A stretch of 64,000 nucleotides of DNA, from IMG/VR virus record IMGVR_UViG_3300009092_000002, positions 1-64,000 of that record; one strand, given 5' to 3'. The stretch's first letter is position 1. Each line of letters begins with the position of its first letter. The translations under genes and the position numbers were made by a program. This DNA is from a virus (taxonomy: Duplodnaviria > Caudoviricetes). This document shows, in pieces, positions 1,774 through 29,856 of this stretch. Under the pieces are notes generated by a model, which saw only the letters and a program-made list of their open reading frames with translations, was not told the DNA's origin and did no database searches.

Positions 1774-2511
1774 ATGGTCAAATGGCTGGCAAAGCTTCTT
1801 TACTGGAAGCTGGCAGTACCTAATTTCGTTAGCATTCTTCCGCCCGCCGTGCACGTTGCGAGTGGCCCGTTTCGCGGGATGCGCTATGTTCGAACCGCCC
1901 ACGGGAGCGCGCATTCCGCCAAGGTTCTAGGAACTTACGAACGGGAACTGCGCGATTGCGTGACTCTCGCGATGACGATGCCGTTTAAGTGCCTTGTCAA
2001 TATTGGAGCGGGAGAGGGTTACTACGCGATCGGGCTCGGTAGGGCCTTGCATAGCCAGATCGTCGCTTTCGAAGCAGAAGCGCACGGGCGTGGCCTCATT
2101 GCCCAATTGGCGGACTGGAATGGAGTTTCCGTTTCAATTCGCGGGCTGTGCGGAATTGATGAGCTCAACGATGCACTGGCGTCCACTGGCCCGGCCTTCG
2201 TTGTCTGCGACGTTGAGGGTTACGAGGCTGAACTGCTCGACCCGCAGAGAGTGGATGCGCTTGCGAGCGCCTGGGTTCTCGTGGAGTTGCATGAGACCCT
2301 GCGGCCCGGCGTCTCGGCGCTGATTGTGGAGCGCTTCAAGCGAACGCACCAGATCCTGGAGATCGCAAGTGAACCGCGCAGGTGGAAGGATTTTCCCGGC
2401 CGCCGGTCTTGGGCTGCACTACTTCCCAAGTCTCTCGCTTTCCGGGCGATGGAGGAGAGTCGCGCGGAGCAGTCCTGGTTCTGGATGCAACCGCTAAGCG
2501 CGCTACGGTGA
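1774..2511 (+). CDS. Class I SAM-dependent methyltransferase, FkbM-like
   Basis: NIGAGEGYY SAM-binding motif, acidic AFEAE motif II, CDVEGYE motif. Confidence 0.8.
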   Translation: MVKWLAKLLYWKLAVPNFVSILPPAVHVASGPFRGMRYVRTAHGSAHSAKVLGTYERELRDCVTLAMTMPFKCLVNIGAGEGYYAIGLGRALHSQIVAFEAEAHGRGLIAQLADWNGVSVSIRGLCGIDELNDALASTGPAFVVCDVEGYEAELLDPQRVDALASAWVLVELHETLRPGVSALIVERFKRTHQILEIASEPRRWKDFPGRRSWAALLPKSLAFRAMEESRAEQSWFWMQPLSALR

Positions 2512-5500
2512 ATCCGGGAACATGTTCGAGCAGCGGAAATTCCCACCGGCGAAGCCCTGGAATCGGTAGTTAGGAAACGGGTTGACGGTCTTGCTGCAGC
2601 CGAGCGAAACCTTGAGGGTTCCGGTGTGCGCGCGAGCGAGGTTGAACTTTAGCGTCCCAGCCGACCCCTTCACGCAAGTCTGTCCAGGCTCCGAGAACGC
2701 GGTGTAAACGAGTTCTGGTTCCTCGCCTCCAGTACTGTTTACCCAAAACGGCCGATTGAAGTAACTGCCCTGACCTCCGGTGCTAACGCTAGCCGGGCAG
2801 GTCGTGAAGGTTACCGTTTTGATTCCGGCACCGTCAAGTGTCCCAGTAGCGCCGTTGGCCACGTCTCCCTCGACTCCGGCCGCGACATCGGCGTCCCAGT
2901 CGTGAGCCGGGTACACCAGCTTGAGCCAAGCGAGGAATGCGGCGCGCTGCGTGCTGTCAGCGTCCCACGTGTTGAGCACGGTGATCCAGTAGGCCAGCCG
3001 ATCGCCGCCGCCTCCCGTACCGGACCAGCCATTCGCGGCGAAGCAGCACGGGTCGGCCGAGTAATTCGTAAAGACGTTGGTCCAGTAGGCCGCATTCTGC
3101 GTGTTGACAAAGTTCGCCGTGAACATTGCCAGGAACGAATTGGCGATCCGGTCGCGCCATTCAGTCGCCGTCATGAACCAATAATCAGGCGTAGATGCCT
3201 GGCTCCCAGCGCTGGATAGAAGACCAGTCCAGTCGATGCCGATGCTGCCATTGTGGAAGAACCAGTTTGCGTTCAGCGCACTTGCCTGTGTCGCGAATAT
3301 GCCGGCGAACAGTAATGACGGAGGTCCGGTTGGCCGGCAGTCTTTGGACACAGCGTTCAAAAAGGCCAGGTAGTACCCGTTATCGATGAGCGTTCCATTT
3401 CCCCAGCCGTTGCCTCCGTTGGCGATCACTTGGAGGTGATACCAGATATTGCTCTGGTAGTCGAAGGTGCAGTAATCCGGGTCTGTTGGCGATGAGGTTG
3501 CGATATTGTACAGGCCGGTGTGCAGGCCGATTCGATGCATTCCGGTGCTGAAGAAGGGACCAGGAGCAAGCACGCCATTCGATACCGACCAGTTCGGATT
3601 AGGAGTAGCCGAGGTTCCATGCGCTGCCGCCTGCCGCTGGCCGTCGAACTGAAACGTCTGCTTCTCAACCGCGATCTCCCATGACTTTACCGTCGCGAGT
3701 AATTGGATGGAAAAGCTGTTCATCGGCCACACCGCAGGAGGACGCTGGCCAGCCAATGTCACTGAGCCGTTTCCCGTGAAACCTGAAGCCTGAAGAGTGG
3801 CGTCCAGCCAATTGTCGCCACGATTGTAGATGTCTCCAAACTGCTTTGCAGAAAATGCCGAGTAACTGTTAGGGGCCATGTTGTCGATCACATCGTTAAC
3901 ACGGGTCAGCGCCGTTGACGCGCCGAAATTCAGCGACGGGAAGCAGTCCGATGGATAGCAGACGGGAATCCATTGCAACCAGTCCCCGAATTGCCACGGG
4001 ATCGGAACATTGCGTGGGTCGAGTTTGGAGTCAAAGGCGAACTTGGTATTATCCATGTACTCCCAGGTATCCATGCCGTAAGTGAGTACGGCGTCGATCC
4101 CGGCTCCGGCAAAGAACTTGACCGTGTTGCTGATCCCAAGAGTCGATTCTGTGTACGTCCCGTTGGCCACGTTGACGGTCGTAAACGTCCGCGTGGTGCC
4201 GGAGCCGCCCGTAATGGCGTAGTCGTTGTTCAGGTCCGTATCGACCGTTGCGCCCCAAACTATGATCGCGTCTCCTGTCACGAATCCGGGATCAGCGGAG
4301 AAGGTTGCCGTCGTGACGTTTGAGGAGGTGACAAGCTGCGTTAGCGTTCCGTTGGACTTGTTAAACGTGCCCACCGACATCCCCGGGCCAGGCTGAAGAG
4401 GAGGATTCCATGGGCGCCCATTTATCGGAACAGGGACAGCCGCCGCGCGAATGAACGCAGCTATGTTGTCACCTTCCTGGTCCGTCATGCCGTGGAATTT
4501 GGCGCGCTCACGGATGGCATTATTGGAGAAGTTATAGACCTTTAGATCCTTCCCCTGTTTTGTGTGGCAGGCAGCGCAGGTCGTGATGGTGGACAGGACG
4601 TTATTGACGTATGGCGCTTGCGGATTCACCATCGCCGCCACGTTCGGCGTCCCGGCCGCATTTCCGTACAGCCAGAGATTCCCTCCGGCGACCGCATCAG
4701 AGCCCCCTGGAGCAGCGCTGGGCATAGCGGCAGCGGTGAAAGCGGAATTGGCGATAATTCCCCGAGCGGCAGCGATGACAGGCTGGGTCATATAACCCGT
4801 GGTGACGATTGTGTTTCTATTCACGGGGACGGTGTAGGTTCCGTTGGGGGATGTGCAACCTGACGTGCTAGTAACGGTAGTTCCACAGGGCGTGAAATCA
4901 AATGTGTTCGTCGCAGCCGCGGTGAGCGTTCTCAAGCCTCCGAACCTCATGTACATTCCGGGCGTGAACTGCATGAGCACCGTGTCGCCGGAACTGTAGC
5001 CGTTTGATGAGCACGTCGGGGTTGCGACATTGCTGGTCACCGAAATCTGGGTGCAGGTTTTGTTCGCCTCGATGAGATTGAGCGCCAGGATGCGCGCGCC
5101 GCTGGTGTTGCCTTCGGTTCCGTTGAATCGAATTCCTATCGTGACCGTCGTGTCGCTGCTACCTACCGTTCCGTCTGGGACAACCAGAGTAAATTCCCTG
5201 ACCCGCGCGTAACTCCCGATGTCGCCGTAGTACTTCATTTCGTCGATGCCGGTCGCATTGGCATTGGTCAACGCTATCCACGAGCCGCCGTCGATCTGGA
5301 AACTAATCTTGCCATCGGGGCGAACTGCGCTCGTGTAGCCGGGATTGTGGATACGAATGTACAGCCGTAGACTCGTTGACGCATGTCCGCTGATAAGCGG
5401 AAGCTGTACACGGGTGACGTAGCAGTCCTGCCCGATCACTTCAATCGGCATTGGAAGCGGTGCGGTTGTGATCGTCGAGAACGGGATTTGGGGGATAGTG

Positions 5501-5907
5501 CCGAAGCCATCGCAGGTATTCGTCTTGTACGCCCCGGCTGCCGCCGACACGGTGAACGGAGAAACGATGGAGCCGCCACTATCCAGCCGGATTAGCCAAA
5601 CGTACAACTGTCCCCACTGCATGTTGAGCGTTGTCAGGCTGGCAGTCCCTCCCACACCGCAAGGATCTGCGCAGGTAGTCAGGGTGATCGCTGAAGTTGG
5701 CGGTGTGAAGATGGTCGAGACCACCACTGCAGCCCTCGCCCATGCCGCTGGGACGCCCACCTTGCGCTCCACAGCACCCCCGGCAGGGCCGGAGTTATTC
5801 ACGGTGAAGTGAGTCGCTCCAACGTCGAGCCTGACGGCAAACTCCTGGCCGTGGTTTGCCGCGAACAGTGGAATGTGGGCGAGTAGGAACAAAAGCGCTG
5901 TTTTCAT
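2503..5907 (-). CDS. Large exported protein with c-type haem motif and beta-rich modules
   Basis: Signal peptide MKTALLFLLAHIPLFA; CAACH at 4564-4578; many Cys pairs; Thr/Gly-rich beta modules. Confidence 0.75.
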   Translation of the reverse strand: MKTALLFLLAHIPLFAANHGQEFAVRLDVGATHFTVNNSGPAGGAVERKVGVPAAWARAAVVVSTIFTPPTSAITLTTCADPCGVGGTASLTTLNMQWGQLYVWLIRLDSGGSIVSPFTVSAAAGAYKTNTCDGFGTIPQIPFSTITTAPLPMPIEVIGQDCYVTRVQLPLISGHASTSLRLYIRIHNPGYTSAVRPDGKISFQIDGGSWIALTNANATGIDEMKYYGDIGSYARVREFTLVVPDGTVGSSDTTVTIGIRFNGTEGNTSGARILALNLIEANKTCTQISVTSNVATPTCSSNGYSSGDTVLMQFTPGMYMRFGGLRTLTAAATNTFDFTPCGTTVTSTSGCTSPNGTYTVPVNRNTIVTTGYMTQPVIAAARGIIANSAFTAAAMPSAAPGGSDAVAGGNLWLYGNAAGTPNVAAMVNPQAPYVNNVLSTITTCAACHTKQGKDLKVYNFSNNAIRERAKFHGMTDQEGDNIAAFIRAAAVPVPINGRPWNPPLQPGPGMSVGTFNKSNGTLTQLVTSSNVTTATFSADPGFVTGDAIIVWGATVDTDLNNDYAITGGSGTTRTFTTVNVANGTYTESTLGISNTVKFFAGAGIDAVLTYGMDTWEYMDNTKFAFDSKLDPRNVPIPWQFGDWLQWIPVCYPSDCFPSLNFGASTALTRVNDVIDNMAPNSYSAFSAKQFGDIYNRGDNWLDATLQASGFTGNGSVTLAGQRPPAVWPMNSFSIQLLATVKSWEIAVEKQTFQFDGQRQAAAHGTSATPNPNWSVSNGVLAPGPFFSTGMHRIGLHTGLYNIATSSPTDPDYCTFDYQSNIWYHLQVIANGGNGWGNGTLIDNGYYLAFLNAVSKDCRPTGPPSLLFAGIFATQASALNANWFFHNGSIGIDWTGLLSSAGSQASTPDYWFMTATEWRDRIANSFLAMFTANFVNTQNAAYWTNVFTNYSADPCCFAANGWSGTGGGGDRLAYWITVLNTWDADSTQRAAFLAWLKLVYPAHDWDADVAAGVEGDVANGATGTLDGAGIKTVTFTTCPASVSTGGQGSYFNRPFWVNSTGGEEPELVYTAFSEPGQTCVKGSAGTLKFNLARAHTGTLKVSLGCSKTVNPFPNYRFQGFAGGNFRCSNMFPDSP

Positions 5908-6059
5908 TGCGCTCCTCGGTGAGCATCACCGCTAAAATGTGGACTGGGCGAAAACGTTTGGATTGGCCAATACGGCGGGGCCGCCTGCCTTGGCCGCTTC
6001 ACGCAACCAGTTAGCAGCAAGAGGCCAAACAGAAGGCTGAGCGTTAGTAAGCGTCGCAT
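5904..6059 (-). CDS. Small Pro-rich lipoprotein (51 aa), o-spanin-like candidate
   Basis: Manual translation MRRLLTLSLLFGLLLLTG-CVKRPRQAAPPYWP...; lipobox LTGC; stop overlaps next ATG (ATGA). Confidence 0.65.
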   Translation of the reverse strand: MRRLLTLSLLFGLLLLTGCVKRPRQAAPPYWPIQTFSPSPHFSGDAHRGAQ

Positions 6060-8371
6060 TTGTAGACCAGAACATCCCCCGATACCGTCGTGCCGGAAAA
6101 GGTCGCGGTCGTTGTTGTCGATGCCGTCTGTCGCATGAGATTCGCGGTTGTCTGATTACTCATAGAACAGGCGTATCCATTTGGGGCGGTGGCCGCGAAT
6201 GTCACGACCGGCGTACACGTCCCCGTGGTTCCGCTCGTGATCGTACCGGCCGTGTTGGCCCCGGCTATCGCAGTACCGCAACCCGAGGGGGTAGACGGAG
6301 CCGCTCCCTTGTGTATATAGGTCCGGTATCCGACATCCGCAAAATTGGTGCTATCGCTGTCCTTTACGTCTAACTTTCCGAAGCCCGCGCCGACAAGGTT
6401 GTAGTTGCTGGCCATCTTAATCAGGCCAGACGATCCCGTTTCAAGCCTGTTCGTCCCGGTGAAATACAGCGTTGTAAGGGTGTCGCTGGTCGTAAACGTC
6501 AGATTGGCGTGCTGGGCAAGGTTGCCGCTGGCGTCCACATAAAGAATGCGGCCTGAGGTGCCACCGGAGACAGCGCCTCCGATGGTCGCACCACCGCCAG
6601 CCCCAAACGGCTGGGCGAAGTAGTTCGTTCCGTCAGAGCAAACATCCATCCCGGTCGGCGCTGAAGCTGAACCTGCGGACAGAGTTAAATTCGCCGCCGC
6701 TCCGTTGATGTTCTGGCCGGAGCGCGCTACCGTGACTACTCCAGTGCCGTAGTTGAGCACCCTGACACACTTCCCGTCTGCGGGCTGGGAGCCCGAAGCC
6801 ACCAAGGTCGCAGTGAATGTTCCAGACGCTACCGTGATGACCTTGTTCTGGTCGAAATCCGATGTCAATAGCTGATATGTGGTCGTTTGGGCGTTTTTAA
6901 CGAACGGCCTGGAGGCAAGCGAGTTCCAGAGATACCCCGTTGCGTTCGTCAGCACCGCGGCGCTCGGAGTCCCTATGTCGGGGGTTGTCAAAGTAGGAGA
7001 TGTCGCAAAGACGAGATTTCCAGAGCCGGTCTCGCCGGTGACCGCCGCCGCCAGATTAGCGCTTGAGGGCGTTCCTAGCCATGTTAAAACGCCAGTCCCA
7101 AGCGCCGTGCTGGTTACGGCAAACGAAGATCCGGCGAAGGTTGCCAACCCAGCCGCCGGTGCGCTCGGAGCGGTAACCCCGGACCCAGCCACGCTAACCG
7201 AATGTTGTGCATTTGTGCCGTCGAACCAACCGTGACGCCCGGTTAACGTCACATACAGGCCGCCTGAATCGATGCTGCTGGGAATGTTGGCTGGGACGAT
7301 TATCACCGACGCTTCTGTCGCGCTGGATGAGAAAGTGTTGTTCGCTCCGGCAACGGCGTTGCTAGCCGCGAGGTCGAAGAACGCCCCAGCGAGAACCGAA
7401 GAGTCGAAAGAGAGCGTCTGACTGCTGCGCGTCAACCCCGCCCCTAGCAGAATAGCTCCGGTCGCCGTGTCTATGCTGGAGACGCCGCCCCCTGCGCCGC
7501 CGCTGGTGCCACATGAGAAAGCGTCCGTAGATTGGGTGAAATTTAAATGGTTCCCGCCAGTGTCAGTACAGTCTGGGATCACTTTGGCAGTCGCGGTCGT
7601 ATTCGCCGTTGTGATGACTTCTACCGAGTGCGCCGCAGCAGTGGCGCTGTAGGCAATACCGTTGACCTTTGACACGGTGACGGCCGGGAATGTCGTCGTA
7701 ACGTCGCCCGTCATTACCCCGGCATTCGTTAATCGTGCAGCCGCCAGAGCGCCTGATGCAATCGCTGCGGCATCCAGGGTTCCACCGCTGTTTGCCGCCG
7801 CATGGGCGTGGTTAGCGTTAGTGAAGCCGGTTGCCGAGATGGTCGGGGTAGTCAGCGTTTTGGCGGCGAGGGTTTGCGTTGAGCCTAGATTTACCAGCGT
7901 ATCGGTTGCGTCTGGGATGGTAACAACCCTGTTGCCGGTCGGCGTGCCCGTTAAGCGCAAGTAAGTGCTTCCGAAAGTTCCGCTCCCCCACAGAAACAGG
8001 TCCCGAAACGGCTTTGTAGTTGAACCCGCGTCTACACCCGTTTGTGCGAGAAGGGAGGTATTAATTGAAACGGAAGCAAGGTTATCCAAAGCCGTACTTG
8101 CGCCACCGGAGCCGCTGTTAAGTTGCTGGGTCCACGTGTTCGTGGCGGAGCACATGAAGATTTGCTGACCGGCCGTAGCGTCAGTCGCAAAATAAAGCTG
8201 TCCCACCGCACACGTTGCCGGAATGGTGGCAACCGTACCGCTGAGCGCTAAAGACAACCCCCCGAAGCAGTCCGACAGACCTGTCTCTGGGTTCCTTCCA
8301 ATTTTCCCGCACTGTCCGAACGCAACAATACTCAAAATCAGCGGCAACGCCGCGCGAATAAGATATTTCAT
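6044..8371 (-). CDS. Tail-fibre-like protein with signal peptide
   Basis: MKYLIRAALPLILSIVAFG-Q signal; Thr/Gly/Ala-rich fibre-type segments (TSPTLTTPDIGTPSAAVLTNATG). Confidence 0.7.
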   Translation of the reverse strand: MKYLIRAALPLILSIVAFGQCGKIGRNPETGLSDCFGGLSLALSGTVATIPATCAVGQLYFATDATAGQQIFMCSATNTWTQQLNSGSGGASTALDNLASVSINTSLLAQTGVDAGSTTKPFRDLFLWGSGTFGSTYLRLTGTPTGNRVVTIPDATDTLVNLGSTQTLAAKTLTTPTISATGFTNANHAHAAANSGGTLDAAAIASGALAAARLTNAGVMTGDVTTTFPAVTVSKVNGIAYSATAAAHSVEVITTANTTATAKVIPDCTDTGGNHLNFTQSTDAFSCGTSGGAGGGVSSIDTATGAILLGAGLTRSSQTLSFDSSVLAGAFFDLAASNAVAGANNTFSSSATEASVIIVPANIPSSIDSGGLYVTLTGRHGWFDGTNAQHSVSVAGSGVTAPSAPAAGLATFAGSSFAVTSTALGTGVLTWLGTPSSANLAAAVTGETGSGNLVFATSPTLTTPDIGTPSAAVLTNATGYLWNSLASRPFVKNAQTTTYQLLTSDFDQNKVITVASGTFTATLVASGSQPADGKCVRVLNYGTGVVTVARSGQNINGAAANLTLSAGSASAPTGMDVCSDGTNYFAQPFGAGGGATIGGAVSGGTSGRILYVDASGNLAQHANLTFTTSDTLTTLYFTGTNRLETGSSGLIKMASNYNLVGAGFGKLDVKDSDSTNFADVGYRTYIHKGAAPSTPSGCGTAIAGANTAGTITSGTTGTCTPVVTFAATAPNGYACSMSNQTTANLMRQTASTTTTATFSGTTVSGDVLVYKCDAY

Positions 8372-9413: not shown

Positions 9414-9435
9414 CTGGTCAACCCGTGTCGGCTCC

Positions 9436-9591: not shown

Positions 9592-9716
9592 GGAGTGGCG
9601 CTCCTTTGTGAGATATTATACAGCGAATCCGGGGAAATATTGTGTTAATATGCTTCTGGGCCGAATGCCGGTGGGACTACATGGCGATGTCTCATCAATT
9701 TCTTGTCGGCCCATTC

Positions 9717-11857: not shown

Positions 11858-11874
11858 TGTGTTAGAGTGGGGGC

Positions 11875-13298: not shown

Positions 13299-13577
13299 AT
13301 GCAAGCCACCGACATTCGTGAATATCTGCACAAGGCCGTCATCCTCGAAATCACCGATAGCGGCATCATCGCCATTCGGCGAAGAGGCAAGCCTTCAGAA
13401 TGGCTCGCCGCTCCGTTCTACAGCGTCGAGACTGAAGCCGAAGCCGCCGCGCTTCTCGCGGAGCTCGCCAGGAAGAGAGACGGGGAGTACGAATATCCCG
13501 GCTTCAGTAGCGGCACCGCCCCCGTTTCGTTTGTGACTGAGCAATTCCATCGCGAGTGGCTTGCTCAAAATACGTAG
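13299..13577 (+). CDS. Antisense moron, hypothetical protein
   Basis: Extended -10 TGATAAACT (13280-13288) then ATG 13299. Confidence 0.55.
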   Translation: MQATDIREYLHKAVILEITDSGIIAIRRRGKPSEWLAAPFYSVETEAEAAALLAELARKRDGEYEYPGFSSGTAPVSFVTEQFHREWLAQNT

Positions 13578-19707: not shown

Positions 19708-22700
19708 CTACGGCCTAGCGGCGATCTCGGCTTCGATGCCTTCTATTACACTCGGCGTGATGATCTTCTTGTCGATCCAATCCTGAAAGATACGGGATCG
19801 CTCTGCAGGCGGAATGTCCGTTAGCTTCTGAACGATAAATCTGGCGCGAGTTTTCACGGGCGAAGTTCGGATATGCGCTTCGAATCTGGAGAGATCCGAA
19901 TTCTGGCGCTCGATGATCTTCTCAATGGCTCCCAACGTCTCATCGTCTAACTTCATTTCGCGTACTCGCTTGCCGCGCTCTGCTGGCGGGATTCCCGAGA
20001 GTTCCGCATACAGCGTCTGCGCTTTCCTGGCTAGCGCTACGTTCTCATCGGTGACGGCGGTCTCGACCTGCTTGAGGTCGTCGAATCGCTGGGTTTCTTG
20101 TTCTCCGCCGTGAGCGCCAGAGAATCGACCCGATATTTGCTTGCCCGCAGTAGATGGGCTGGAGATTTGACGACCCAAACCTCCGAACTGCGTTGCTACG
20201 GCGTTCTGGATCTTCATCGGCGACACCCCAGTAAGTTCCCCTGCCTTTACGAATCCGCTTGGAGTGTCTGCGGTGTACTGGTTCTCCGGAGAAGCCTTTG
20301 TTAGATCACCATAGGGGCCACGTGTCGGAACTATCTCGCGATCGGTGTACAGATTTTTATTGGTGATTCCCTCAACGCCGGCCTTGACTAGCGGGGGAAG
20401 AGTTCCGCTCGCTACGGCGCCACCAGAGAACTTGCCATTCCTCTCGAACGGTACCGGCGATAGGTCGCTGAGTACTTGTGTTGCGAGCACATCGAGAGCC
20501 TTTGGATTGTTTTTGTCGAGGTAGGATAGGAAGTTTTCCAGCGGATTTCCGAATGCCTTGGCGTCGCCTTTGGGAAGCTTGATAACTTGGGTATAGTTGC
20601 CTTTTTCGTCTTTGGCGTCACCGTAGATGATGAGGAAATTGGCGTCCTTCTCGTACTGCGAAATGTCGTCCCACACGTCCTTATGGTTCCGCGTGTTGTT
20701 CAGGTAGGTGGCAACGACCGGAGCGCCGACAATGGCAGCCAAGCCAAGCGCCGCGCGTTTCGGCTGGCCCTTGATCGCTCCCAGCATATTAACCGTGCCC
20801 TGCGTGCGTGCATTGAGGAACGGAACCCACTGGTTGACGATCTTTAAGGTCGTGCCGGATTTAGCAAAGTCCACCGTAGCGTTGCGGGAGTTGAACGCTG
20901 CTTCCGTCTCCGAAAGCCCCTGCCGAAGCGCGCGTTTGTAAACCCCGAGACGCGGAGCCATCTCGATATGCTCCGCCGAGTACCGCAAGAGTTCTACCGG
21001 ATTTAGGATCGTCTTGGCCGCCTTCAGGCTGAGCGGCTGCGTCAACTGTCGCGCTGCCGAGGGAAGTGCTTTTTGGCTGCCGAAGTAGCCGCTGAAGGAA
21101 GCGCCACTCTCCATGTAGGATTGAAAATCTTTCCCGTGATTGACGGATTCGGCAAACCCGCGAATCCAGTCCGCTGGCGTGAAACCAACCTTGGAGACGA
21201 TGGTGGCAGTCTGGAAGTCACGCACGGCGTTCGCCGGGATGAAGGCCACGTTCAGGGAAGTCGCGCCAGCCCTGAGCGCCGCGGCGCTCTTTGACGCCCA
21301 TTTGGTGATGAGATCGGCGCTTTCTGTGGTCATCCCCTTGAGCGCCTTGCCTACATTCTTCGGAACGGCGTACTCGTATTTCACGCCGTTGCGAAGTACG
21401 GCCATCTTGTCCATGCCAGCCGGGACAAAGCCGCCTTTTCCTACAGGTTCGACGATTCCCTTAAACTGCGGATCGGTTGCCAGCGAAGCCACCTTTTCGG
21501 CTACCTTATTTCGCTCGATCAGGCTGATTGTTTTGGCTGTGCGCCGGATGATGGATTCAACGGGATCGGCAATTGCCTTCTCGCTGCCGGAAATGGCCTT
21601 GATGACCTTTTGCGCCGGGACGTTGAATGAGTTCGAGCCGTGCGGCATCTGATCGACCGAATCGGCGAGGTACTCCAGGCGCTCGAATGGGATGTACTTC
21701 TGATTCTTTGTAAGAATAGACTGGTAGGCTTTTTGTCCGATCAGCCCAGCGTCGGCCGCTTCCTTTAGGATGCCGTTGCTGTAGTCGCGGACGCCTTGCG
21801 CCAAACGTTTTACCTCTGCCACCTTCTGCGGCCCCAGTCGGGCCTCCATCGCCGCGAGTTCTGCTTGGACGTTGGCAACTGTCTTTCCACCGGGGATTTT
21901 GTAGGTCGCCGCAAGATCCGGCCTGGAGCCGAGTTCGACGTGGCGCTCCAATGTCATGTAGTCGGTCGCGTCGCGGAGCAGTCCCGGCCGGCGACCGATA
22001 GCCGACTCCCAGAAGCCGCCCTTGGGTAGAATGTTGGCGAGTTGATCTAGGCGGTTTTGGATCTTTCCGTAATGGCCTGCGTAGTTGCGTGCGGCGACGT
22101 AAGGGTCGGAGTCCACTGTTAGTTTTTTGTCTTTGACTAAATGGCGCAGTGGGGCGAGGCGGTCGAGGAGTTGAGTCTCAAGGTCGATAGCTTTTTCCCG
22201 GATAGCTTGCGCATTGATGGTGATGGAACCGCGTTCGGGATTTCGGAAGGCTGCATCGAATGCTTCCTTTGGCGTAGACCTGCCGAATATGCTTTCCGTA
22301 CCGTTATCGAATCCCTCTGTTGCATACTGCCGAACGGCCTTGGTAAGAGCGGTCGGCGTCATGTCGCGTAGCGCAGTAGCCAATCGAACGGCTTCGTCCG
22401 AGAATTCAGGTGCGCCACCGAACATGTCTTCCTGCCTAACTGCGTCAGAAATTGTCTTCAATCCGTGAGCACGGGCATACTCCAGAAGATTCAGAGACTC
22501 ACGCAACTTGGGAGCTAGGTCCCATTCCGGATTCCCCTTGGTTGTCATCGCCGGAGCCGCGATGCGCTCCAGCTTGTTCCTTAAGGATGGCTCTGCCCTT
22601 TGCATCTGGTCGCTGTCGGCAAAGAAGTCTCCGAGGAGCATCTTGGAGATTCGCTCTTTCGCGTGCGCCGTCACTGCTCCGGTGCGTGCGTCCACCAGCT

Positions 22701-24603
22701 TTGGCTTTTCCTGGATAGTGAATACGCCTTCTTCGATGAGCCGATTAACTACCTCGTGACCACGGTTGCCGCTCAACACTTCCGAGATGGTAGTATCTGG
22801 ACCGGACTGCTCAAGGGCTGAGGCGATGTATTCAGTAGCCCTCGGCGACATGCCACGAGCGTCCGTGGTGGATTGTTCGGCGGGCGTTAGTTCAGCGGTT
22901 TCCCGCTTATTCATGTCCGTGACGGCGCGAGACACATCCGACTTAGATGCCAGCTTCCTAACGAGAACAGGCTGCTTCATACTGGCCACGTGACTCGCAT
23001 CGAAGCCAAATTGCCCAGCTTTTTCGGAGAGGGTGTTTCTGTAGGCCGCTGCGCCTTCTGGATTGCCCTGATAGACGCGCTGAAGAGTCATCACGCGACT
23101 ATTCCCGCCGTACACGTTTCCATTGGAATCTATTACAGGAGGTCCGTTCGTGGCGGTCGGATTATCGTTAACAAGGAACGCCGGATCAAAGCGCGGGGAA
23201 CTGTTTATTAAAATGCGTTCTTGGTTGGACGGATCGGCGTAGTTCCGGTCATTGCGAATCTGGTATTCGGGATTCGCCTGGAAAGTGTGGCCGCTATGCG
23301 AGGGCTGGATATCCGCTAGTTCGCGGAGCTCGTACTCGGTTTGGTATCGGGTGTCTTCGCCGGGGACGCGGACTTCGGTGGCGCGACCAACCCTAGTTTC
23401 ATTCCTTGCCGGACGCGATCCGAGAACCGACGCGCCTTCTCCAATTCCTCTTGGTAGTTCTGTTCCATACGGTGGGAGTATATCAGAAACCGGGGTAGGT
23501 TGTGGAGTGGATGGCTCTAAGGCTTGTACTGGAACTACCTCTTCTGGTCGAACTACGATAGGCTCACGTGTAGCCTGAGCGGGGACCTTTGAAGCAACTG
23601 GCGGCTCCGGAGTGGAAATCGGCGTCACTTCTTCAGGCCGTACAACCAGCGGACGGCGGGCACTGGGTGCCGTTCCTACCTGTCGCCGCTGCGCCTTCGG
23701 AGGCCCCGGTGCGGAGCCAGCCTTGCCCTCCGCGATCAGATCGTCAATCGCGATCCGATCCGGATTACTGAGTTCCTCCCATTTCACGCCCAGCCGTTGC
23801 GCTGCCGTCTCCCGCGCTGCCTGTCCTCGCGCTACATTCTCTGGGATGCCCGTCTCCGGAACTACCGGCTTGACTGGCGGCTGGAATACTTCGGCGGACT
23901 GGCGCGCTGTCTGTGGTCGCGGAGTTCCTGCGGCGCGGAATACGGCTGCGGATTCTTCGGCGGATTTGAACGGCGCTGGCTCGATAGGTCCAACAGGCTT
24001 CGGGCCAACAGTTTCCGCAACCTTCGCTTCGACTGGCGATCGATGCCCACGGCTCGCCACCAATCCGCCGCCGGCGATTCCAGCCACGTCCGCAATTGGC
24101 GCGGCGTAATCTGGGTCTACGCCGACCGCTTCCAGGCCCTTCTCCGTCCCGTACTGCGCTGCGGCTCCGGTCGCAAGGGCGCGGGCAGTTCCCATGGTCA
24201 GCGGCAGGGGAATGATTCCAGATGCCGCCTCAAGTCCGCCGCGGATCACATCCGATACCCCACGAGACTTAGCCTTTGCTCCCGGCTGGGTAGCAATCTT
24301 CTTGCCGCCGTAAATCATCCGCATCCCGCCTCCGATCACCGGCCCTAGTCCAAAATCGGGAGAGTCGCGGAGTGTCCGGCCTTCGCGGGCCGCCGTGCTG
24401 ACGACTTCCTGTTGCAATTGATCGGGAGTACGTGGATTGAGGCGGCGCTCCTCGTCTGCGGCCTCCTTGCGTTCGTCCTGGGCCTGCAGGCCATAGGGGA
24501 CTAGGCGGCGCGGGAGTCGCGGAGCGGATTGCTGGTCGAGTTCCTCCGGACGCACTACCAGCGGCGCTTGGTCGAGTTCGTCGATTCTGACCGTGATTGG
24601 CAT
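19708..24603 (-). CDS. Large polyvalent/ejection protein (ddrB-like ParB domain plus LPD38-like C-terminus)
   Basis: YELRELADIQPSH...GPPVIDSNGNVYGGNSR (ddrB-ParB pattern); WDDISQYEKDANFLI...IKLPK (LPD38 pattern); position after other internal virion genes. Confidence 0.75.
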   Translation of the reverse strand: MPITVRIDELDQAPLVVRPEELDQQSAPRLPRRLVPYGLQAQDERKEAADEERRLNPRTPDQLQQEVVSTAAREGRTLRDSPDFGLGPVIGGGMRMIYGGKKIATQPGAKAKSRGVSDVIRGGLEAASGIIPLPLTMGTARALATGAAAQYGTEKGLEAVGVDPDYAAPIADVAGIAGGGLVASRGHRSPVEAKVAETVGPKPVGPIEPAPFKSAEESAAVFRAAGTPRPQTARQSAEVFQPPVKPVVPETGIPENVARGQAARETAAQRLGVKWEELSNPDRIAIDDLIAEGKAGSAPGPPKAQRRQVGTAPSARRPLVVRPEEVTPISTPEPPVASKVPAQATREPIVVRPEEVVPVQALEPSTPQPTPVSDILPPYGTELPRGIGEGASVLGSRPARNETRVGRATEVRVPGEDTRYQTEYELRELADIQPSHSGHTFQANPEYQIRNDRNYADPSNQERILINSSPRFDPAFLVNDNPTATNGPPVIDSNGNVYGGNSRVMTLQRVYQGNPEGAAAYRNTLSEKAGQFGFDASHVASMKQPVLVRKLASKSDVSRAVTDMNKRETAELTPAEQSTTDARGMSPRATEYIASALEQSGPDTTISEVLSGNRGHEVVNRLIEEGVFTIQEKPKLVDARTGAVTAHAKERISKMLLGDFFADSDQMQRAEPSLRNKLERIAAPAMTTKGNPEWDLAPKLRESLNLLEYARAHGLKTISDAVRQEDMFGGAPEFSDEAVRLATALRDMTPTALTKAVRQYATEGFDNGTESIFGRSTPKEAFDAAFRNPERGSITINAQAIREKAIDLETQLLDRLAPLRHLVKDKKLTVDSDPYVAARNYAGHYGKIQNRLDQLANILPKGGFWESAIGRRPGLLRDATDYMTLERHVELGSRPDLAATYKIPGGKTVANVQAELAAMEARLGPQKVAEVKRLAQGVRDYSNGILKEAADAGLIGQKAYQSILTKNQKYIPFERLEYLADSVDQMPHGSNSFNVPAQKVIKAISGSEKAIADPVESIIRRTAKTISLIERNKVAEKVASLATDPQFKGIVEPVGKGGFVPAGMDKMAVLRNGVKYEYAVPKNVGKALKGMTTESADLITKWASKSAAALRAGATSLNVAFIPANAVRDFQTATIVSKVGFTPADWIRGFAESVNHGKDFQSYMESGASFSGYFGSQKALPSAARQLTQPLSLKAAKTILNPVELLRYSAEHIEMAPRLGVYKRALRQGLSETEAAFNSRNATVDFAKSGTTLKIVNQWVPFLNARTQGTVNMLGAIKGQPKRAALGLAAIVGAPVVATYLNNTRNHKDVWDDISQYEKDANFLIIYGDAKDEKGNYTQVIKLPKGDAKAFGNPLENFLSYLDKNNPKALDVLATQVLSDLSPVPFERNGKFSGGAVASGTLPPLVKAGVEGITNKNLYTDREIVPTRGPYGDLTKASPENQYTADTPSGFVKAGELTGVSPMKIQNAVATQFGGLGRQISSPSTAGKQISGRFSGAHGGEQETQRFDDLKQVETAVTDENVALARKAQTLYAELSGIPPAERGKRVREMKLDDETLGAIEKIIERQNSDLSRFEAHIRTSPVKTRARFIVQKLTDIPPAERSRIFQDWIDKKIITPSVIEGIEAEIAARP

Positions 24604-25848
24604 TTAGTTATCGAGAACGAGCGTCCCGTCCGGATTTACGCTTAGAACTTTGTGCGGCTTGCCTTTATAGTTCACAGGGTCGCCTGGTTTGTACTTAGAT
24701 CCACCCGCCGAGGGCGACGGAGACGCGGAACCGCCGCCCAGGAACTTTTCCATCGCTGGAGACAACTTGCTCTTCTTTTTAGGAGAGCGCTGCGTTAGCT
24801 GGCGCTCTACTCCAGCGAAAGCGGCCGGATCGTCCGCCAGGAGGCTCTTAGCTTCGGCGACCGCCGCTTCCAGGTTGTCGCCGTGCTTCATGCGGAGCTG
24901 GCCGACCACCTCGTTTATTTCCCGCGTCAATACTTGGTTGGGCGTGCTGCCGGCCTCGGTCTTAGTTTTTCCGATTCTGCCTAGCGGAAGCTTGCCACCT
25001 GGGGAGCTCGCAACCTCGGTAGGCTTTACAGATACGGCTGTGACGTTCCCTTGGTTGTCCGATTCAAAATGCGTAATGGGCTTCTCAGGGTGAAGTTGGT
25101 TATACGTGTCCCTAAGGGAATCCAGTTGCGCCTTCTTCTGCTCCGGTGGTGCGTCACTGCGGAATATTTCCAATGCCTGCCCTTCGATGGTTCTCGCGGG
25201 CGCAGGGGCGTTAGGCTTTCCGGTACGCGCCGTCCTGAAGCCGGTTGGATCGCTAGCGTCGGGCACGATCAGATTCTTAGTAGGGTCATGTTGAATCGGA
25301 TCAGGCGGCTTTGGACCCACTGCTGCCAGGGCCCTCGCCCTCACCTCCTGTCCTTCGTAAGCCCCTGCGTGAGCACGCTTGAGCGCTAGGTCGGCTTCCT
25401 GATCCTCTGCTGCTCGTTGCGACGTTACCTTGTTGCCTTCGATCTGCGCTTGCTGCCCGTATGTATCGAGTCTCCGCTTCCAATCGTCAGTACGTCGCCG
25501 GAATCCTGCTTCCCCGGTTACGCCTTCGACTGCGGCCTGCGTATCGCGCGGGTCGATGCGCGTCCGTCCGCTGGCATTGATGAATCCAGCCCCACCACCA
25601 ATAAGCCCAGCCGCAAGACGCTGCCACCCTGACGGTGCTTGGCGCTCCGGACGCTCTCCTAGCGTCTGCTTTACTTTATCCATCGCGGCGCTGAATTCCG
25701 GACTGAGCACACGACTGGAACGCGGCACAGTGATCGGTGTGGGCGAAGAGGCAGGCGCTTCCTCGGGATCATTCGGATACGTACGCATGGTGCGCAGTGG
25801 GTTATCGCGAGGGAGGAGATCGTCCTCTTCTGGATATAAAAAGCTCAT
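24604..25848 (-). CDS. Putative ejection/internal virion protein
   Basis: Helical, charged, GLIGGGAG hydrophobic patch; podovirus ejection-gene position. Confidence 0.55.
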   Translation of the reverse strand: MSFLYPEEDDLLPRDNPLRTMRTYPNDPEEAPASSPTPITVPRSSRVLSPEFSAAMDKVKQTLGERPERQAPSGWQRLAAGLIGGGAGFINASGRTRIDPRDTQAAVEGVTGEAGFRRRTDDWKRRLDTYGQQAQIEGNKVTSQRAAEDQEADLALKRAHAGAYEGQEVRARALAAVGPKPPDPIQHDPTKNLIVPDASDPTGFRTARTGKPNAPAPARTIEGQALEIFRSDAPPEQKKAQLDSLRDTYNQLHPEKPITHFESDNQGNVTAVSVKPTEVASSPGGKLPLGRIGKTKTEAGSTPNQVLTREINEVVGQLRMKHGDNLEAAVAEAKSLLADDPAAFAGVERQLTQRSPKKKSKLSPAMEKFLGGGSASPSPSAGGSKYKPGDPVNYKGKPHKVLSVNPDGTLVLDN

Positions 25849-25854
25849 GCGTCC

Positions 25855-27282
25855 TTACGGCTTTGCTCCAAAATAAGCGCCGACTCCACCCGCAACTGCG
25901 CCGGTCAATTTCTCCCACCACTTGGGCTGATTGTCCTGATTCGCCTGCGCCTGCACAGTGCCTTGCTGCAAACCGCCCTGCGTACCGTACAATCCGATCT
26001 GCTGGCCAGCCGCTGCATTCTCGTTGCCGCTCGCCACATCGCTCTGATGGGTCAGATATCCGCGACCTTCCTGCGCTTCCTTGAGCCGCTGTTGCGCGAC
26101 CTGAGCGTTCCTGTTCGACAGCTCTGAATCGACCGCCGCGCCACGGTAGAACTGGTTTTGCTGATTTTCCTGCGACGTCCGCGCCCTCTGCTCGGCAATG
26201 ATGCGTTGACGCTCTGCCGCGTCTTTCTCCTGCCCGACGGCAAGTTCCGTTCCGAGCCCTTGGTTGTACTGATCAACGTTGCGCCTCTGCGCGTTGATCT
26301 GCTGCTCTCCGGCGATATCTGCCTGTCCGGAAACCTGCGCAGCGTTCGTATTGCGGTCGCCGATATCGCGCGCTGTATCAAGACGCAGCGCCTCCATGCG
26401 GTCCTGCGCCGTAAGTCTCCGTCCGCCGAGCGCGAGTTCGTTACTGGACCCAATCTCGGCCGCAGTCGTTTCACCGGCGCGCCGGCCCTTTTCGATATCG
26501 CTCTCCCGTCCCGCCGCTGCGTCGCTGGCGTAAATGCGGGCCTTGGTGGCAGCGTCTCCAGCCGCCCCTCCACTCTCGCGCAACAGGCGCTCCTTCATGG
26601 CCGCGATACCACCGGGATCAACTCCAGCCGCTCGACCCTGCCGCTCCAGATCACCCATCGCCGCACGATAGCCGGTTCCCGCCGATATCCCAGCGCCAGT
26701 TACGATGTCCTGTTTTTCCTGATCGGACATCCGCACGCGGTCGGCATAGCCGGGGTCCTGCCTCAGTCGGTCAGGATCTGCCGCTCCACGTACCCGATCC
26801 TCGGAGGTGTCGAGCGTTTCGTTAACGCCAGGTACGTAGTCTTCCGATAGCCGCAGATCCGGTTCATTTATGGAACTATACAGGCCGGAGCGCAGCCCGC
26901 CGCGCGCCTGCCGCTGGAATACCTCGCTCGTGTTCTGGTTGTCGTTCGAGTAATCCGGGTTGTAGTATTTTTCCCGCTCGTAGCCCTTTCCGGCGATGGC
27001 TTCCTTTTCAGCGTCATTGAAATAGTTGACGTTGTAGGCGGTGTCGCTCGGGAGAATACCCTGTAGTTCCTGTTCGCGGATGATGGCATCGCGCTCTTCG
27101 GGAGAATAGCCGCCCCTGCCCCCAATGAGTGGATCGTACGCCTCGTCGCCGTAGGAACGGTAAAACCTGCCTGCTTGGCTGGCGTTGGTAGCGCGGTCTT
27201 GCGCTTGATTGGCAAGATTGCCGCCTTGTCCATAAATCCATCCTCGATCCTGGGCAATAAAGTCTTTGGCGTTAACTGCCAT
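25855..27282 (-). CDS. Putative ejection/internal virion protein
   Basis: Gln/Ala-rich helical protein with C-terminal WWEKLTGAVAGGVGAYFG. Confidence 0.55.
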   Translation of the reverse strand: MAVNAKDFIAQDRGWIYGQGGNLANQAQDRATNASQAGRFYRSYGDEAYDPLIGGRGGYSPEERDAIIREQELQGILPSDTAYNVNYFNDAEKEAIAGKGYEREKYYNPDYSNDNQNTSEVFQRQARGGLRSGLYSSINEPDLRLSEDYVPGVNETLDTSEDRVRGAADPDRLRQDPGYADRVRMSDQEKQDIVTGAGISAGTGYRAAMGDLERQGRAAGVDPGGIAAMKERLLRESGGAAGDAATKARIYASDAAAGRESDIEKGRRAGETTAAEIGSSNELALGGRRLTAQDRMEALRLDTARDIGDRNTNAAQVSGQADIAGEQQINAQRRNVDQYNQGLGTELAVGQEKDAAERQRIIAEQRARTSQENQQNQFYRGAAVDSELSNRNAQVAQQRLKEAQEGRGYLTHQSDVASGNENAAAGQQIGLYGTQGGLQQGTVQAQANQDNQPKWWEKLTGAVAGGVGAYFGAKP

Positions 27283-27292: not shown

Positions 27293-27592
27293 CTACCTTT
27301 TCTCCGCAGGCTTCTGCCAGGTCATGGTTTTGAAATCAATCACGCAGCCCGAACATTTGGCGTTCTGAATCTGCTCGATTGCCTTCGCTGCAGACTCGCT
27401 GGCATTCTTGAAGGCTTTCTCTTTTTCGTAGTAAGCCGCAAGCGCCGTCGCCATGTCCGCACGGGCCTCGGAGACCGAGAGCTGAAGTTCGCGAACTGAA
27501 CGAACCTCCGGGTCGGAGAGCTTTTCTGCCTCTGACTTGTCGGCGGAGAAAAGTGACCCGCAGAGGAGCGCTACTAAAATTGTAATTTTCAT
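27293..27592 (-). CDS. Small exported coiled-coil protein
   Basis: Signal MKITILVALLCGSLFS-A; CSGC near C-terminus. Confidence 0.65.
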   Translation of the reverse strand: MKITILVALLCGSLFSADKSEAEKLSDPEVRSVRELQLSVSEARADMATALAAYYEKEKAFKNASESAAKAIEQIQNAKCSGCVIDFKTMTWQKPAEKR

Positions 27593-27829: not shown

Positions 27830-28366
27830 ATGCGGTTGCTGATCTGTTTAACGTTTTGTGTTGCGTCGATCGCCCAAGAGCCCGAAACCGAGATGGATAT
27901 TCACGGAACCTGCACCATCACCGGCATCCGAAACGCGACGGACGGAACAACGGCCACCTGGACGGATCGCTGCAACCTTGAAACCATGACCCCCAAGGCC
28001 GGATTCAACAACCTGTATAGGATTGTCGTGAAGCTCTCCATGTCAGCGCCCATCGCCACAGACCTTCCGGCGATCCATGATTTTGTGAAGGCGCAGAACA
28101 CAACCGCCGGAAACGTCATCTTTACGTCAATGCTTTGGGGGAAGATCACCGTTTCACCTAACAGCCCGACCCTTCGCGCCGCTCTCGCATCCCGAGCGCC
28201 GGCCTTTGAAGTTCGCCCCCAAGTCCTATATATTTCGATGTTGAACGAATCCACATTGGAAATTCGCGTAGAAGAAAAGTATGAAGACTTCGACGGAAAG
28301 ACGCCACTCCTGCCGTGGCAGTTGCGGTACGTTGAATCGTTCCGAAGATTCTCATTTTCCCGCTAG
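27830..28366 (+). CDS. Exported hypothetical protein (antisense moron)
   Basis: Signal MRLLICLTFCVASIA-Q. Confidence 0.65.
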   Translation: MRLLICLTFCVASIAQEPETEMDIHGTCTITGIRNATDGTTATWTDRCNLETMTPKAGFNNLYRIVVKLSMSAPIATDLPAIHDFVKAQNTTAGNVIFTSMLWGKITVSPNSPTLRAALASRAPAFEVRPQVLYISMLNESTLEIRVEEKYEDFDGKTPLLPWQLRYVESFRRFSFSR

Positions 28367-29856
28367 CAAGTTGATGCGTATATTACGCCACCATTGATCG
28401 AAATGGTGCAATCGCTAACCCCACCGCTATCGCGAACAGAAAGGACACCTGTAAAGTTTCCGCTCGAAGTTGTGATTCCGTTTGTGGCGTTGATGATGTC
28501 GGCGTAGACAACAAGGGGTCGGAGGCTGGAACTACCAAGGGTATAAGCGCCCGTTGTACCGGGGAGAAAGTTACCAGAGGTGTCAATTTCCCAGCGCTTC
28601 GACGCGGACGTAAAGAACGCCAGCGGCAAGTACGTTCCGGAGCCGGTCTTTGAAGATGCGACGGCAACGTAGTTGCTGGCGATGGCCGCGAACGACCCGA
28701 TGGAGGCATTTGTTGCGGCGGTCGCCGAGACAAAGGCGTCCTTGCTAATGATCGCGCCAGCGTTATAGGACACGTCGGTGGATGTCAGGTTTCCATACAA
28801 TCCGCCATCCACGGTGATGCGAAATCTTTCTGCCGAGTTCGTAAAGATCGCAATCGGCAGATCGGTTCCAGATCCGGTATGGTTCGAGCCGATAGCGACA
28901 TAGCTTCCACCTATTGCAGAGAACGATCCAACCGAGGCGTTGGTTGTGGCTGACGCGCTATAGAATCCTTGGCTGGATATAAACGCGCCTGGACTATAGG
29001 AAACATCCGTCGAAGTTAGGTTTCCCAGTAACCCTCCGGCTGTCGTCATCCTAAAATAAATAGACCCATTCGTATAGAAGGAAATAGGGTTAGCGCCGTT
29101 AGTTCCGATCAGGAATGTGCTAGGCCCCACTACGGCCGATCCGTTAGCGAACCCCACTAGGCCCTTTGAACTCGCTGATGAATCCAAAAATTCAACCGCT
29201 GAGTATCCTGCGGTGTTGCTGTTTTCCACACGCACCACGGAATTTCCAGAAGAGTTCCGGTGGAAGTAACTTAGGCCCGTCACATCCATATCGTGGCCAA
29301 AGTACTGGTTCCAGCGATGAGTGATGTTTCCGAGCTTCCACGTCACGTCATCGAACGGAACAAAGTCTCGACCTACGCAGGTTCCCGGAGCGCCTGCATC
29401 CGTTCCGCCGATGCACTTGAAGTAGATCGTGTTGTCATTCTTGCGAATCTCAAAGGAGTTCCCAGTAGTAGTGCCTGCTGGATCTCTAATGATGAGACCT
29501 GCCACGTCAACACGCGGCGTCTCAACAAACACTGAAGCGTTCGCGGCCACGTTTCCGGGCTGCAGTACAATATTGCCGTTACTGGTTCCAGATCCGATAA
29601 TCGTTAAAGATTGGCCCAGCCCGTCGCAATTTAGAGGGAACCTGCAAAAGCCATTTGCCGATATAGAGTCCGGTGCCCTTAGTCCGAGATAGTTCACGCC
29701 GTTTACTTGGCGCTCCCTAAAGCGCAGTTCGCCAACCGCAGATCCGTCAGCCAGCGGAAGAATAGTTACCTGAGCGCTCCTTACCTGGCCGGAGGCCGAA
29801 GATGCCACTAATAGTAGGGCTAGTCCCCAAGGAGCGGAACGGCAACGTTTGACCAT
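28363..29856 (-). CDS. Tail-fibre-like protein with signal peptide
   Basis: Likely start MVKRCRSAPWGLALLLVASSASG-Q (ATG 29856); IGTNGANPISFYTNG and GAYTLGSSSLR fibre motifs; internal duplication of about 75 aa. Confidence 0.7.
   Translation of the reverse strand: MVKRCRSAPWGLALLLVASSASGQVRSAQVTILPLADGSAVGELRFRERQVNGVNYLGLRAPDSISANGFCRFPLNCDGLGQSLTIIGSGTSNGNIVLQPGNVAANASVFVETPRVDVAGLIIRDPAGTTTGNSFEIRKNDNTIYFKCIGGTDAGAPGTCVGRDFVPFDDVTWKLGNITHRWNQYFGHDMDVTGLSYFHRNSSGNSVVRVENSNTAGYSAVEFLDSSASSKGLVGFANGSAVVGPSTFLIGTNGANPISFYTNGSIYFRMTTAGGLLGNLTSTDVSYSPGAFISSQGFYSASATTNASVGSFSAIGGSYVAIGSNHTGSGTDLPIAIFTNSAERFRITVDGGLYGNLTSTDVSYNAGAIISKDAFVSATAATNASIGSFAAIASNYVAVASSKTGSGTYLPLAFFTSASKRWEIDTSGNFLPGTTGAYTLGSSSLRPLVVYADIINATNGITTSSGNFTGVLSVRDSGGVSDCTISINGGVIYASTC

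Follow-up and report, generated by a model that had tools for sequence, protein, structure and literature searches.

Introduction

In the textbook account, tailed-phage assembly takes place wholly in the cytoplasm, and a signal peptide has even been argued to mark a fibre-like gene as bacterial, not viral. Why, then, should the late genes of a tailed phage encode large fibre-like proteins headed by secretory (Sec) signal peptides, and where would such proteins go? The question is raised by the first 64 kb (64,000 nucleotides, hereafter the window) of a 76,503-bp contig, IMG/VR record IMGVR_UViG_3300009092_000002 (Duplodnaviria; Caudoviricetes), in which a set of such proteins is encoded between positions 2503 and 29856. 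The original prediction for this DNA, made from its letters, held that the proteins are exported, folded oxidatively, and either dock onto the virion at lysis or form a phage-encoded cell-surface structure. The evidence assembled here makes export and oxidative folding very likely, and the statement as a whole, in which export is followed by attachment of the fibre-like members to particles at lysis, can be advanced tentatively.

Signal peptides on the late strand

Signal peptides were called with a heuristic rule of our own, which asks for positive charge in the n-region, a hydrophobic core of seven or more uncharged residues and small residues at positions -3 and -1, with a score of at least 8 counting as a pass. 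Seven of 28 curated late-strand proteins pass this strict rule, against 27 of 9605 internal control positions (0.28%; binomial P = 1.6e-12). All seven N-termini quoted in the original prediction are present on the minus strand, starting at 5907, 8371, 17200, 19162, 19692, 27592 and 29856. They belong to a 1134-residue protein (2503..5907; signal MKTALLFLLAHIPLFA; 20 Cys), a 775-residue fibre-like protein (6044..8371; MKYLIRAALPLILSIVAFG, then Gln; 12 Cys), a 1211-residue protein (13565..17200; MRLLLILAATCCYG, then Gln; 24 Cys in the mature part), a 653-residue fibre protein (17201..19162; MKTILLLAISLPLAA, then Gln; 14 Cys), a 174-residue protein (19168..19692; MRKVFAIVITLALALGA, then Gln; 2 Cys), a 99-residue protein with a coiled-coil body (27293..27592; 2 Cys in the mature part) and a 497-residue fibre-like protein (28363..29856; MVKRCRSAPWGLALLLVASSASG, then Gln; 6 Cys in the mature part). 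Two signal-bearing genes can be added to these: one for a 178-residue protein on the plus strand (27830..28366; MRLLICLTFCVASIA, then Gln), and one for a 51-residue, Pro-rich predicted lipoprotein on the minus strand (5904..6059) with an L-T-G-C lipobox. Cleavage had been expected to fall usually before Gln, and this residue does follow the predicted site in five of the seven quoted proteins, or in six of eight with the 178-residue protein included.

It is thus strongly supported, where it is not shown outright, that eight or nine products of the late strand are Sec substrates, one of them a lipoprotein and the other seven or eight cut by signal peptidase I. The weakest case is the 99-residue protein, whose N-terminus is ambiguous between a signal peptide and a membrane helix; a similarly built 112-residue protein, with a signal and a coiled coil as judged by eye only, lies beside the corresponding cluster of one relative (L035). 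The exported set takes up about 13.8 kb, or 18% of the genome, and its genes come after those for the ejection proteins, spaced 0-15 nt apart. As had been stated, no signals stand on the capsid, portal, nozzle-like and ejection proteins, but the claim that every fibre-like protein carries one was overstated, given a 160-residue protein (29820..30302, minus strand) that has tail-fibre matches and no signal.

Cysteine pairing and a haem motif

We hold with high confidence that the late fibre-like proteins are exported, as three independent lines converge on it: the conservation of the signals, the pattern of cysteines and a haem motif. The many Cys pairs noted at first sight are borne out by counting. 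Mature exported proteins contain 82 Cys in 4586 residues (1.79%), about sixfold more than the 17 in 5559 (0.31%) of eleven signal-less structural proteins (Fisher P = 1.3e-14), eight of which are Cys-free, and the mature count is even in all eight exported proteins. The same contrast holds among 304 public homologues, 122 of them with a signal: Cys content is 1.42% in the signal-bearing and 0.63% in the signal-less, and even mature counts are found in 102 of the 119 signal-bearing homologues that have any Cys (86%; binomial P = 6e-16), compared with 87 of 160 signal-less ones (54%; Fisher P for the difference, 1.7e-8).

The third line comes from the 1134-residue protein, which has a CxxCH haem motif at residues 444-448 (window 4564-4578). 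Its family comprises at least 14 full-length homologues of 31-55% identity from at least four different phage types; 12 begin with a signal, and the remaining two (P0126, P0134) seem to be truncated at their N-termini. C444, C447, H448 and H472, the last lying 24 residues downstream of the motif, are invariant across the 14 homologues, three of which have a longer Cys-Cys spacing (CGGxxGCH). Remote matches are all restricted to the CxxCH region, and one of them is named cytochrome c553 by its source. Covalent attachment of c-type haem takes place on the periplasmic side and needs periplasmic machinery, which makes the motif an argument for export. The family would thus be one of phage-borne c-type haem proteins, and the 1134-residue protein probably also acquires covalently bound haem in the periplasm. 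An AlphaFold2 model (mean predicted local distance difference test score, pLDDT, 72; predicted template modelling score 0.73) places helices at residues 405-414 and 453-487 around the motif, with pLDDT 74-89 over residues 440-500; no cytochrome appears among the fold matches listed for the model, a list filled by other domains.

Could the proteins instead remain in the cytoplasm, their hydrophobic N-termini acting as assembly or membrane-tethering segments, or simply being ignored, and their cysteines oxidising only after lysis? Tailspikes need no export in the textbook view, our signal calls come from a heuristic, and virion disulfides in proteins without signal peptides are documented for phage Milano (PMC10811340). 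We nevertheless judge this explanation very unlikely. The n-h-c layout, the small residues at -3 and -1 and the Gln at +1 are conserved while the sequence drifts, which is the signature of cleaved signals; the haem motif requires a periplasmic attachment machinery; and the contrast within one genome between Cys-free cytoplasmic and Cys-rich signal-bearing proteins is hard to explain otherwise. With conserved signals, a sixfold excess of Cys, even counts and an invariant CxxCH motif, the predicted export and oxidative folding are well supported.

Conservation of the signals in relatives

A survey of related phages had been proposed as a check, and the signals are kept in at least six other phage lineages while their sequence drifts: in L001/L002, the 60.7-kb soil phage L003/L004, L009, the Acidobacteriota metagenome-assembled genome (MAG) contigs L020 and L024, which have a related nozzle-like gene, L033-L035, L042, L043, the sequences P0297-P0308 and the cultured phage Tunturi_1. 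All three counterparts of the 174-, 653- and 1211-residue trio in the syntenic L001 begin with signals. The 1211-residue protein is 52.6% identical over its full length to a 1219-residue L001 protein and the 174-residue protein 55% identical to one of 194 residues; the 653-residue protein and its 552-residue counterpart have in common only a 133-residue stretch, 65% identical. If preference is given to those valid sites that have Gln, this residue stands at +1 in 89 of the 122 signal-bearing homologues; without that preference it does so in 23 of 53 (homologues of the 775-residue protein).

An independent instance is provided by Tunturiibacter phage Tunturi_1 (PP887698), a cultured acidobacterial podophage. 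Signals with A-Q-type sites head gp12 (1190 residues, 20 Cys), gp13 (675 residues, 10 Cys), gp14, annotated as 'tail spike protein' (919 residues, 21 Cys), gp16 (149 residues, 2 Cys) and gp17, a 'virion structural protein' (1184 residues, 32 Cys), which make up five of the six genes between the 'tail protein' gp11 and the lysis genes; gp15 (113 residues) was not judged. Like the window, this podophage has signal-bearing, Cys-rich proteins (10-32 Cys in the four large ones) just before its lysis genes, but these show no detectable sequence similarity to the exported set of the window. Tunturi_1 forms plaques on an acidobacterium, and integrase or recombinase genes are annotated only in Tunturi 3-5 (Demina et al., bioRxiv 10.1101/2024.08.08.607240), which argues that its exported proteins act in the lytic cycle. 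Signal peptides go unmentioned in that paper (bioRxiv 10.1101/2024.08.08.607240).

Similar proteins are also encoded on two Bryobacteraceae/Terriglobia MAG chromosomes (L008, 8960-11668; L013, 8312-11086), each with an exported protein of about 900 residues and 19 Cys that contains the fibre module described below for the 653-residue protein. Cellular relatives of these phage proteins thus exist.

Where the exported proteins may go

The reading that we put forward has two compartments, and its first half is strongly supported. The exported proteins are very likely translocated unfolded by Sec into the periplasm, cut by signal peptidase I, mostly before a Gln that could then cyclise, and folded there with disulfides, whereas the head, portal, nozzle-like and ejection proteins, almost free of Cys, are made and assembled in the cytoplasm. 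The second half is tentative. A soluble periplasmic pool would build up late in infection and, once holin and endolysin breach the envelope, meet the finished particles, onto whose signal-less tail stubs the fibre-like members (174, 653, 1211, 497 and perhaps 775 residues) would dock; the 160-residue protein is the best stub candidate. The 1134-residue protein has modules of a sugar-binding type as well as the haem motif, and may rather be a free enzyme. Docking of the fibre-like members at lysis is possible on present evidence and somewhat doubtful, and with a little more caution the same scheme may be extended to tailed phages of Acidobacteriota and other soil bacteria, in which exported fibres would join the particle at lysis.

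That these are fibre proteins at all is argued by a module common to prophage fibres, by fibre repeats, by a beta-barrel of endosialidase type and by matches to PHROG families. The module, phiTE_241_C-type and about 95 residues long (consensus NAQTGTTYT ... PTTSTIDG), follows straight after the signal of the 653-residue protein (residues 22-118), and after it come a run of Gly and a collar motif typical of tail fibres; the module occurs within signal-less tail fibres of proteobacterial and actinobacterial prophages and also in signal-bearing proteins. Common tail-fibre repeats give the 775-residue protein more than 8000 homologues, with signals in 53 of the best 150 representatives, and its ESM Atlas neighbours, a lead only, are all viral clusters of tail-fibre type (scores 0.86-0.90). 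Residues 511-595 of the 1134-residue protein form a beta-barrel that resembles one in the phi92 endosialidase (4hiz_A; VIA-align Z 9.2, root-mean-square deviation 2.1, 78 aligned residues). The 174-residue protein, which matches phrog_5838 'virion structural protein' (E 1.7e-8), is a single beta-barrel domain of the type also found at residues 514-595 of the 1134-residue protein, a segment that its L001 copy matches as well.

The most direct hint of a link between a cytoplasmic and an exported part is the gene pair at 28363-30302. The 160-residue protein is signal-less and Cys-free, with an N-terminal helical part, a C-terminal phiTE_241_C-type beta domain and matches to phrog_9017 and phrog_4549 'tail fiber protein'; over residues 75-160 it is 52% identical to a 129-residue PF26209 protein of L042, encoded downstream of a P22 gp10-like gene, and it is 36% identical to a 200-residue protein of L043. 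In all three phages the signal-less small gene lies directly upstream of a signal-bearing gene of the 497-residue type, and the two overlap, by 37 nt here (29820-29856), 37 nt in L042 (4223-4259) and 1 nt in L043. The out-of-frame overlap is identical in length in two distantly related phages, the window and L042. An N-terminal domain is common only to the 497-residue protein and its L042 and L043 counterparts. No Shine-Dalgarno motif precedes the start at 29856, which lies within the upstream gene because of these 37 nt, and the recorded gene caller chose a start 16 codons further in; position 29856 is nevertheless supported, because the full-length relative P0300, as well as P0305, has an A-Q-ending signal at the aligned position. 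Nearly all of the 12 homologues (P0297-P0308) show a signal followed by Gln. Two other accounts of the pair were discarded: it is not one frameshifted gene, since the homologues of the 497-residue protein have N-terminal signals of their own, and it is not a split version of a 428-residue L001 protein, to which it has no similarity. The arrangement fits a putative cytoplasmic stub with an exported distal part, and the conserved translational coupling suggests a physical pair. A complex prediction for the 160-residue protein with residues 24-200 of the 497-residue protein scored 0.00 in a run without controls and speaks neither for nor against binding.

Several observations weigh against docking. 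We know of no tailed phage that takes up exported parts, and no virion-anchor domain was recognised at the mature N-termini. Many signal-less homologues of the 775-residue protein share an N-terminal motif of the MASTYSSLKIQLMATGE..TWG type, which we read as a probable tail-fibre N-terminus and which is absent from the signal-bearing ones; Pfam names no N-terminal domain in either group. The 1134-residue family is conserved at full length amid lambda-like, P22 gp10-like and SU10-like head and tail genes, and such a spread across unrelated tails argues against tail-specific attachment. In most cases the gene ahead of it is signal-bearing and has a segment in common with the 775-residue protein, parts of which recur in this position in L033, L034 and L035. 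Between the window and L001 the exported trio is 52-55% identical and the nozzle-like protein 27%, which, together with the variety of tails, fits a cassette independent of the tail. In phages of the same host genus as Tunturi_1, the short-tailed Tunturi_3 and the long-tailed Tunturi_4, fibres are signal-less and Cys-poor, so that export is a trait of some phages and not needed to infect these hosts. The fibre-module proteins of L008 and L013 lie in a conserved non-phage neighbourhood, virion disulfides can exist without signal peptides, as in Milano (PMC10811340), and the signal calls are heuristic.

Part of this evidence would be accounted for if the exported proteins never joined a particle. 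They would then be disulfide-stabilised proteins that bind or degrade glycans, gather in the periplasm and are released at lysis to act on the host envelope, the exopolysaccharide matrix or neighbouring cells, with receptor binding left to the 160-residue fibre. This, too, we regard as possible and no firmer than tentative. The CBM35/36-like modules and haem motif of the 1134-residue protein suggest an enzyme, not a strut; its family and the partial relative of the 775-residue protein travel as a cassette among phages with unrelated tails, and the lack of a recognised anchor at the mature N-termini points the same way. A signal-less fibre-like gene adjoins the nozzle-like gene here, in L001 (428 residues), in L020/L024 (328 residues) and in L042; in most of the phages (L001, L003, L020, Tunturi_1) the lysis genes come shortly after the cluster; and about 5% of carbohydrate-active enzymes of soil prophages have signal peptides (PMC13507307). 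Yet it is not obvious what a free enzyme would do with long fibrous shafts and tail-fibre collar motifs, multivalent receptor binders set free would be rivals of the progeny phage, some 13.8 kb is a large outlay for accessory proteins, and the coupling of the 160- and 497-residue genes suggests that their products meet. Nor was a catalytic family recognised in any exported protein by domain, Protein Data Bank (PDB) or fold searches.

The cell-surface structure offered in the original prediction as the alternative to docking looks less likely than docking, because no C-terminal sorting signal or outer-membrane anchor was seen and the same kind of cluster occurs in Tunturi_1. A related possibility is that the lysogen produces the proteins and installs them in its own envelope, where they would alter the surface or block superinfection; lambda Lom and Bor and P22 SieA are examples of surface or exclusion proteins expressed by lysogens. 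The phage is temperate, with an integrase gene at 62823-64043; signal genes with Gln at +1 in Porphyromonas phages have been read as envelope modifiers (PMC10367356); the 178-residue exported protein is separately oriented on the plus strand and 83% conserved; and chromosomal homologues exist in L008 and L013. The genes, however, sit within the late strand and are coupled to it, outer-membrane or cell-surface sorting signals were not seen, and Tunturi_1 has the cluster with no annotated integrase or recombinase, so that we think this explanation highly improbable. On the late strand the one convincing terminator (1556-1591, minus strand; a 15-bp stem and a T run) lies beyond the 1134-residue gene and across a plus-strand open reading frame at 1774-2511, and shuffled sequence yields at least as many of the other terminator-like matches. 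A consensus scan, which may not fit the host and is a weak test, showed no promoter-like site ahead of either exported cluster. These patterns weakly suggest that the exported genes may be part of a single late unit.

Architecture of individual exported proteins

Apart from its barrel and haem region, the 1134-residue model contains jelly-roll domains, with matches of CBM35/36 type for residues 145-282 (VIA-align Z 6-7.8). A Foldseek search of the whole model against the PDB gave no match at E <= 0.001. The helical domain at residues 600-1015, folded alone (pLDDT 62), drew only generic helical-repeat matches (Z <= 7.4), and an initial guess that it is an (alpha/alpha) toroid lyase or hydrolase is unsupported by these fold matches. 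Beside the 1134-residue homologues of L033 (12932-13591, minus strand) and L034 (13697-14431, minus strand) lies a divergently oriented gene for a protein of about 220-245 residues that starts with a signal followed by ADII(T/V)(V/N)NF, and which may be another conserved exported partner of this family.

The 1211-residue protein has a PKD domain (PF22352, K319L-like; E 8e-9), the sole result of PDB sequence searches with four proteins. The 178-residue protein is 83% identical to its L001 counterpart, an unusually strong conservation next to tail genes that are 27-55% identical. The 51-residue lipoprotein resembles an o-spanin; no adjacent i-spanin was identified, the candidate membrane and coiled-coil proteins being 4 kb away (9054-10744), and a reverse-strand membrane protein at 8430-9125 has no significant similarity to Tunturi_1 gp19.

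The phage and its host

The first 124 bases of the contig (window 1-124) are repeated at its end (76380-76503), which indicates a complete or circularly permuted phage genome. By its gene set of integrase, primase, terminase, portal, head, nozzle-like and ejection genes, the phage, which comes from soil, is of a temperate, short-tailed type. Profile and domain matches identify, on the minus strand, the large terminase (42158-44098), a P22-type portal (38954-41173) and the major head protein (36290-37561), the last two by weak matches, and an HNH endonuclease (35556-36242), whose gene separates the major head gene from those for head-tail proteins; a primase gene is also on the contig. The 634-residue nozzle-like tail protein (30303..32207, minus strand), for which no family match was found and whose label is that of the original prediction, has no signal and 3 Cys, and is 26-27% identical to proteins that adjoin signal-bearing fibres in L020 and L024. 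Three signal-less, Cys-free proteins of 1631, 414 and 475 residues (19708..27282, minus strand) are read as ejection or internal virion proteins; the first matches PF18857 (LPD38) and PF18763 (ddrB-ParB), and the group also matches phrog_9854 (E 2e-65).

The host probably belongs to the Acidobacteriota. Relatives lie on contigs binned to this phylum (Acidiferrales, 'Acidobacteria bacterium'), with one phage contig (L009) binned as Gemmatimonas, and the weak ESM Atlas neighbours of the 1134-residue protein are for the most part from Acidobacteriota; a similar set of exported proteins is encoded by a phage of the acidobacterium Tunturiibacter. Many late genes are preceded by Shine-Dalgarno motifs. 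The Gln at +1 recalls the Q-rule of Bacteroidetes, Gln after the signal peptidase I site, which was drawn from a survey outside which the Acidobacteria fall (Bochtler et al. 2018, PMC5837995); a Bacteroidota host, which this rule would suggest, was rejected on the Shine-Dalgarno usage and the taxa of the relatives.

No close relative of the phage was found in the GenBank phage collection or in IMG/VR. The GenBank collection gave no matches for the capsid or the 1211-, 653- and 1134-residue proteins, and short ones only for the 174- and 775-residue proteins; IMG/VR scans with the capsid and the 497-residue protein gave none, and one with the 1134-residue family returned three loci only.

Some further features may be recorded. 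Genes for tRNA-Met (CAT; 10885-10958) and tRNA-Pro (TGG; 11072-11145) lie on the plus strand within the minus-strand late region, amid lysis-type genes. A protein with a metallo-beta-lactamase fold (PF00753, E 7e-14) is encoded at 11150-11890 (minus strand) in the midst of small membrane proteins, at the place expected of an endolysin; in the whole window no gene could be recognised as one for an endolysin. In the early region, a signal-like segment (MFIFAASGQAQG) comes after an internal Met of an open reading frame at contig positions 65090-65923 (minus strand).

Relation to known systems and significance

With the fibres and tailspikes of podoviruses (T7 gp17, P22 gp9, phi92 endosialidase) the exported set shares its gene position after the nozzle and ejection genes, as well as fibre repeats, the phiTE_241_C-type module, an endosialidase-type beta-barrel and a PKD domain, and modules are exchanged with signal-less fibres. 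It differs in having a Sec signal in place of an N-terminal anchor, sixfold more Cys in paired numbers and one haem motif. Among virion proteins, pIII and pVIII of filamentous phages have Sec-type signals and are assembled outside the cytoplasm; these inoviruses, unlike the window phage, are built by extrusion at the membrane with no cytoplasmic capsid, and their sequences are unrelated. Closer in gene position are o-spanins, which the 51-residue lipoprotein fits, secreted or signal-arrest-release endolysins, and lambda Lom and Bor, all signal-bearing and in or beside late operons, but these are small and have known envelope roles, as opposed to six fibre-type or glycan-binding proteins of 174-1211 residues.

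Agrobacterium phage Milano resembles the window in having Cys-rich virion proteins locked by disulfides, and differs in that its tail proteins, to judge by the abstract, are made in the cytoplasm and have no export signals (PMC10811340). The nearest case in print is that of Porphyromonas gingivalis phages, in which five signal genes following the Bacteroidetes Q-rule were read as adaptation to host export or as envelope modifiers (Matrishin et al. 2023, PMC10367356). Those, too, are phage-encoded signal peptidase I substrates with Gln at +1, but they are five genes of no assigned role from phages of Bacteroidota, in contrast to the large fibre-like late proteins of the window with its Shine-Dalgarno host. 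The original prediction knew of no characterised system like this one, and our literature searches agree with it, having found no published description of such an exported fibre-like system.

A recurrent class of exported, disulfide-paired, fibre-like proteins would affect both host prediction and the annotation of phage receptor-binding genes. With Tunturi_1 and its host in culture, the destination of such proteins is directly testable. Should they never join a particle, they would make up a new class of glycan-active proteins released by phages in soil, one of them with a haem motif; if they do join it, they would represent a new assembly route for tailed phages and would explain how host-recognition proteins hardened by oxidation come to be found in phages of soil.

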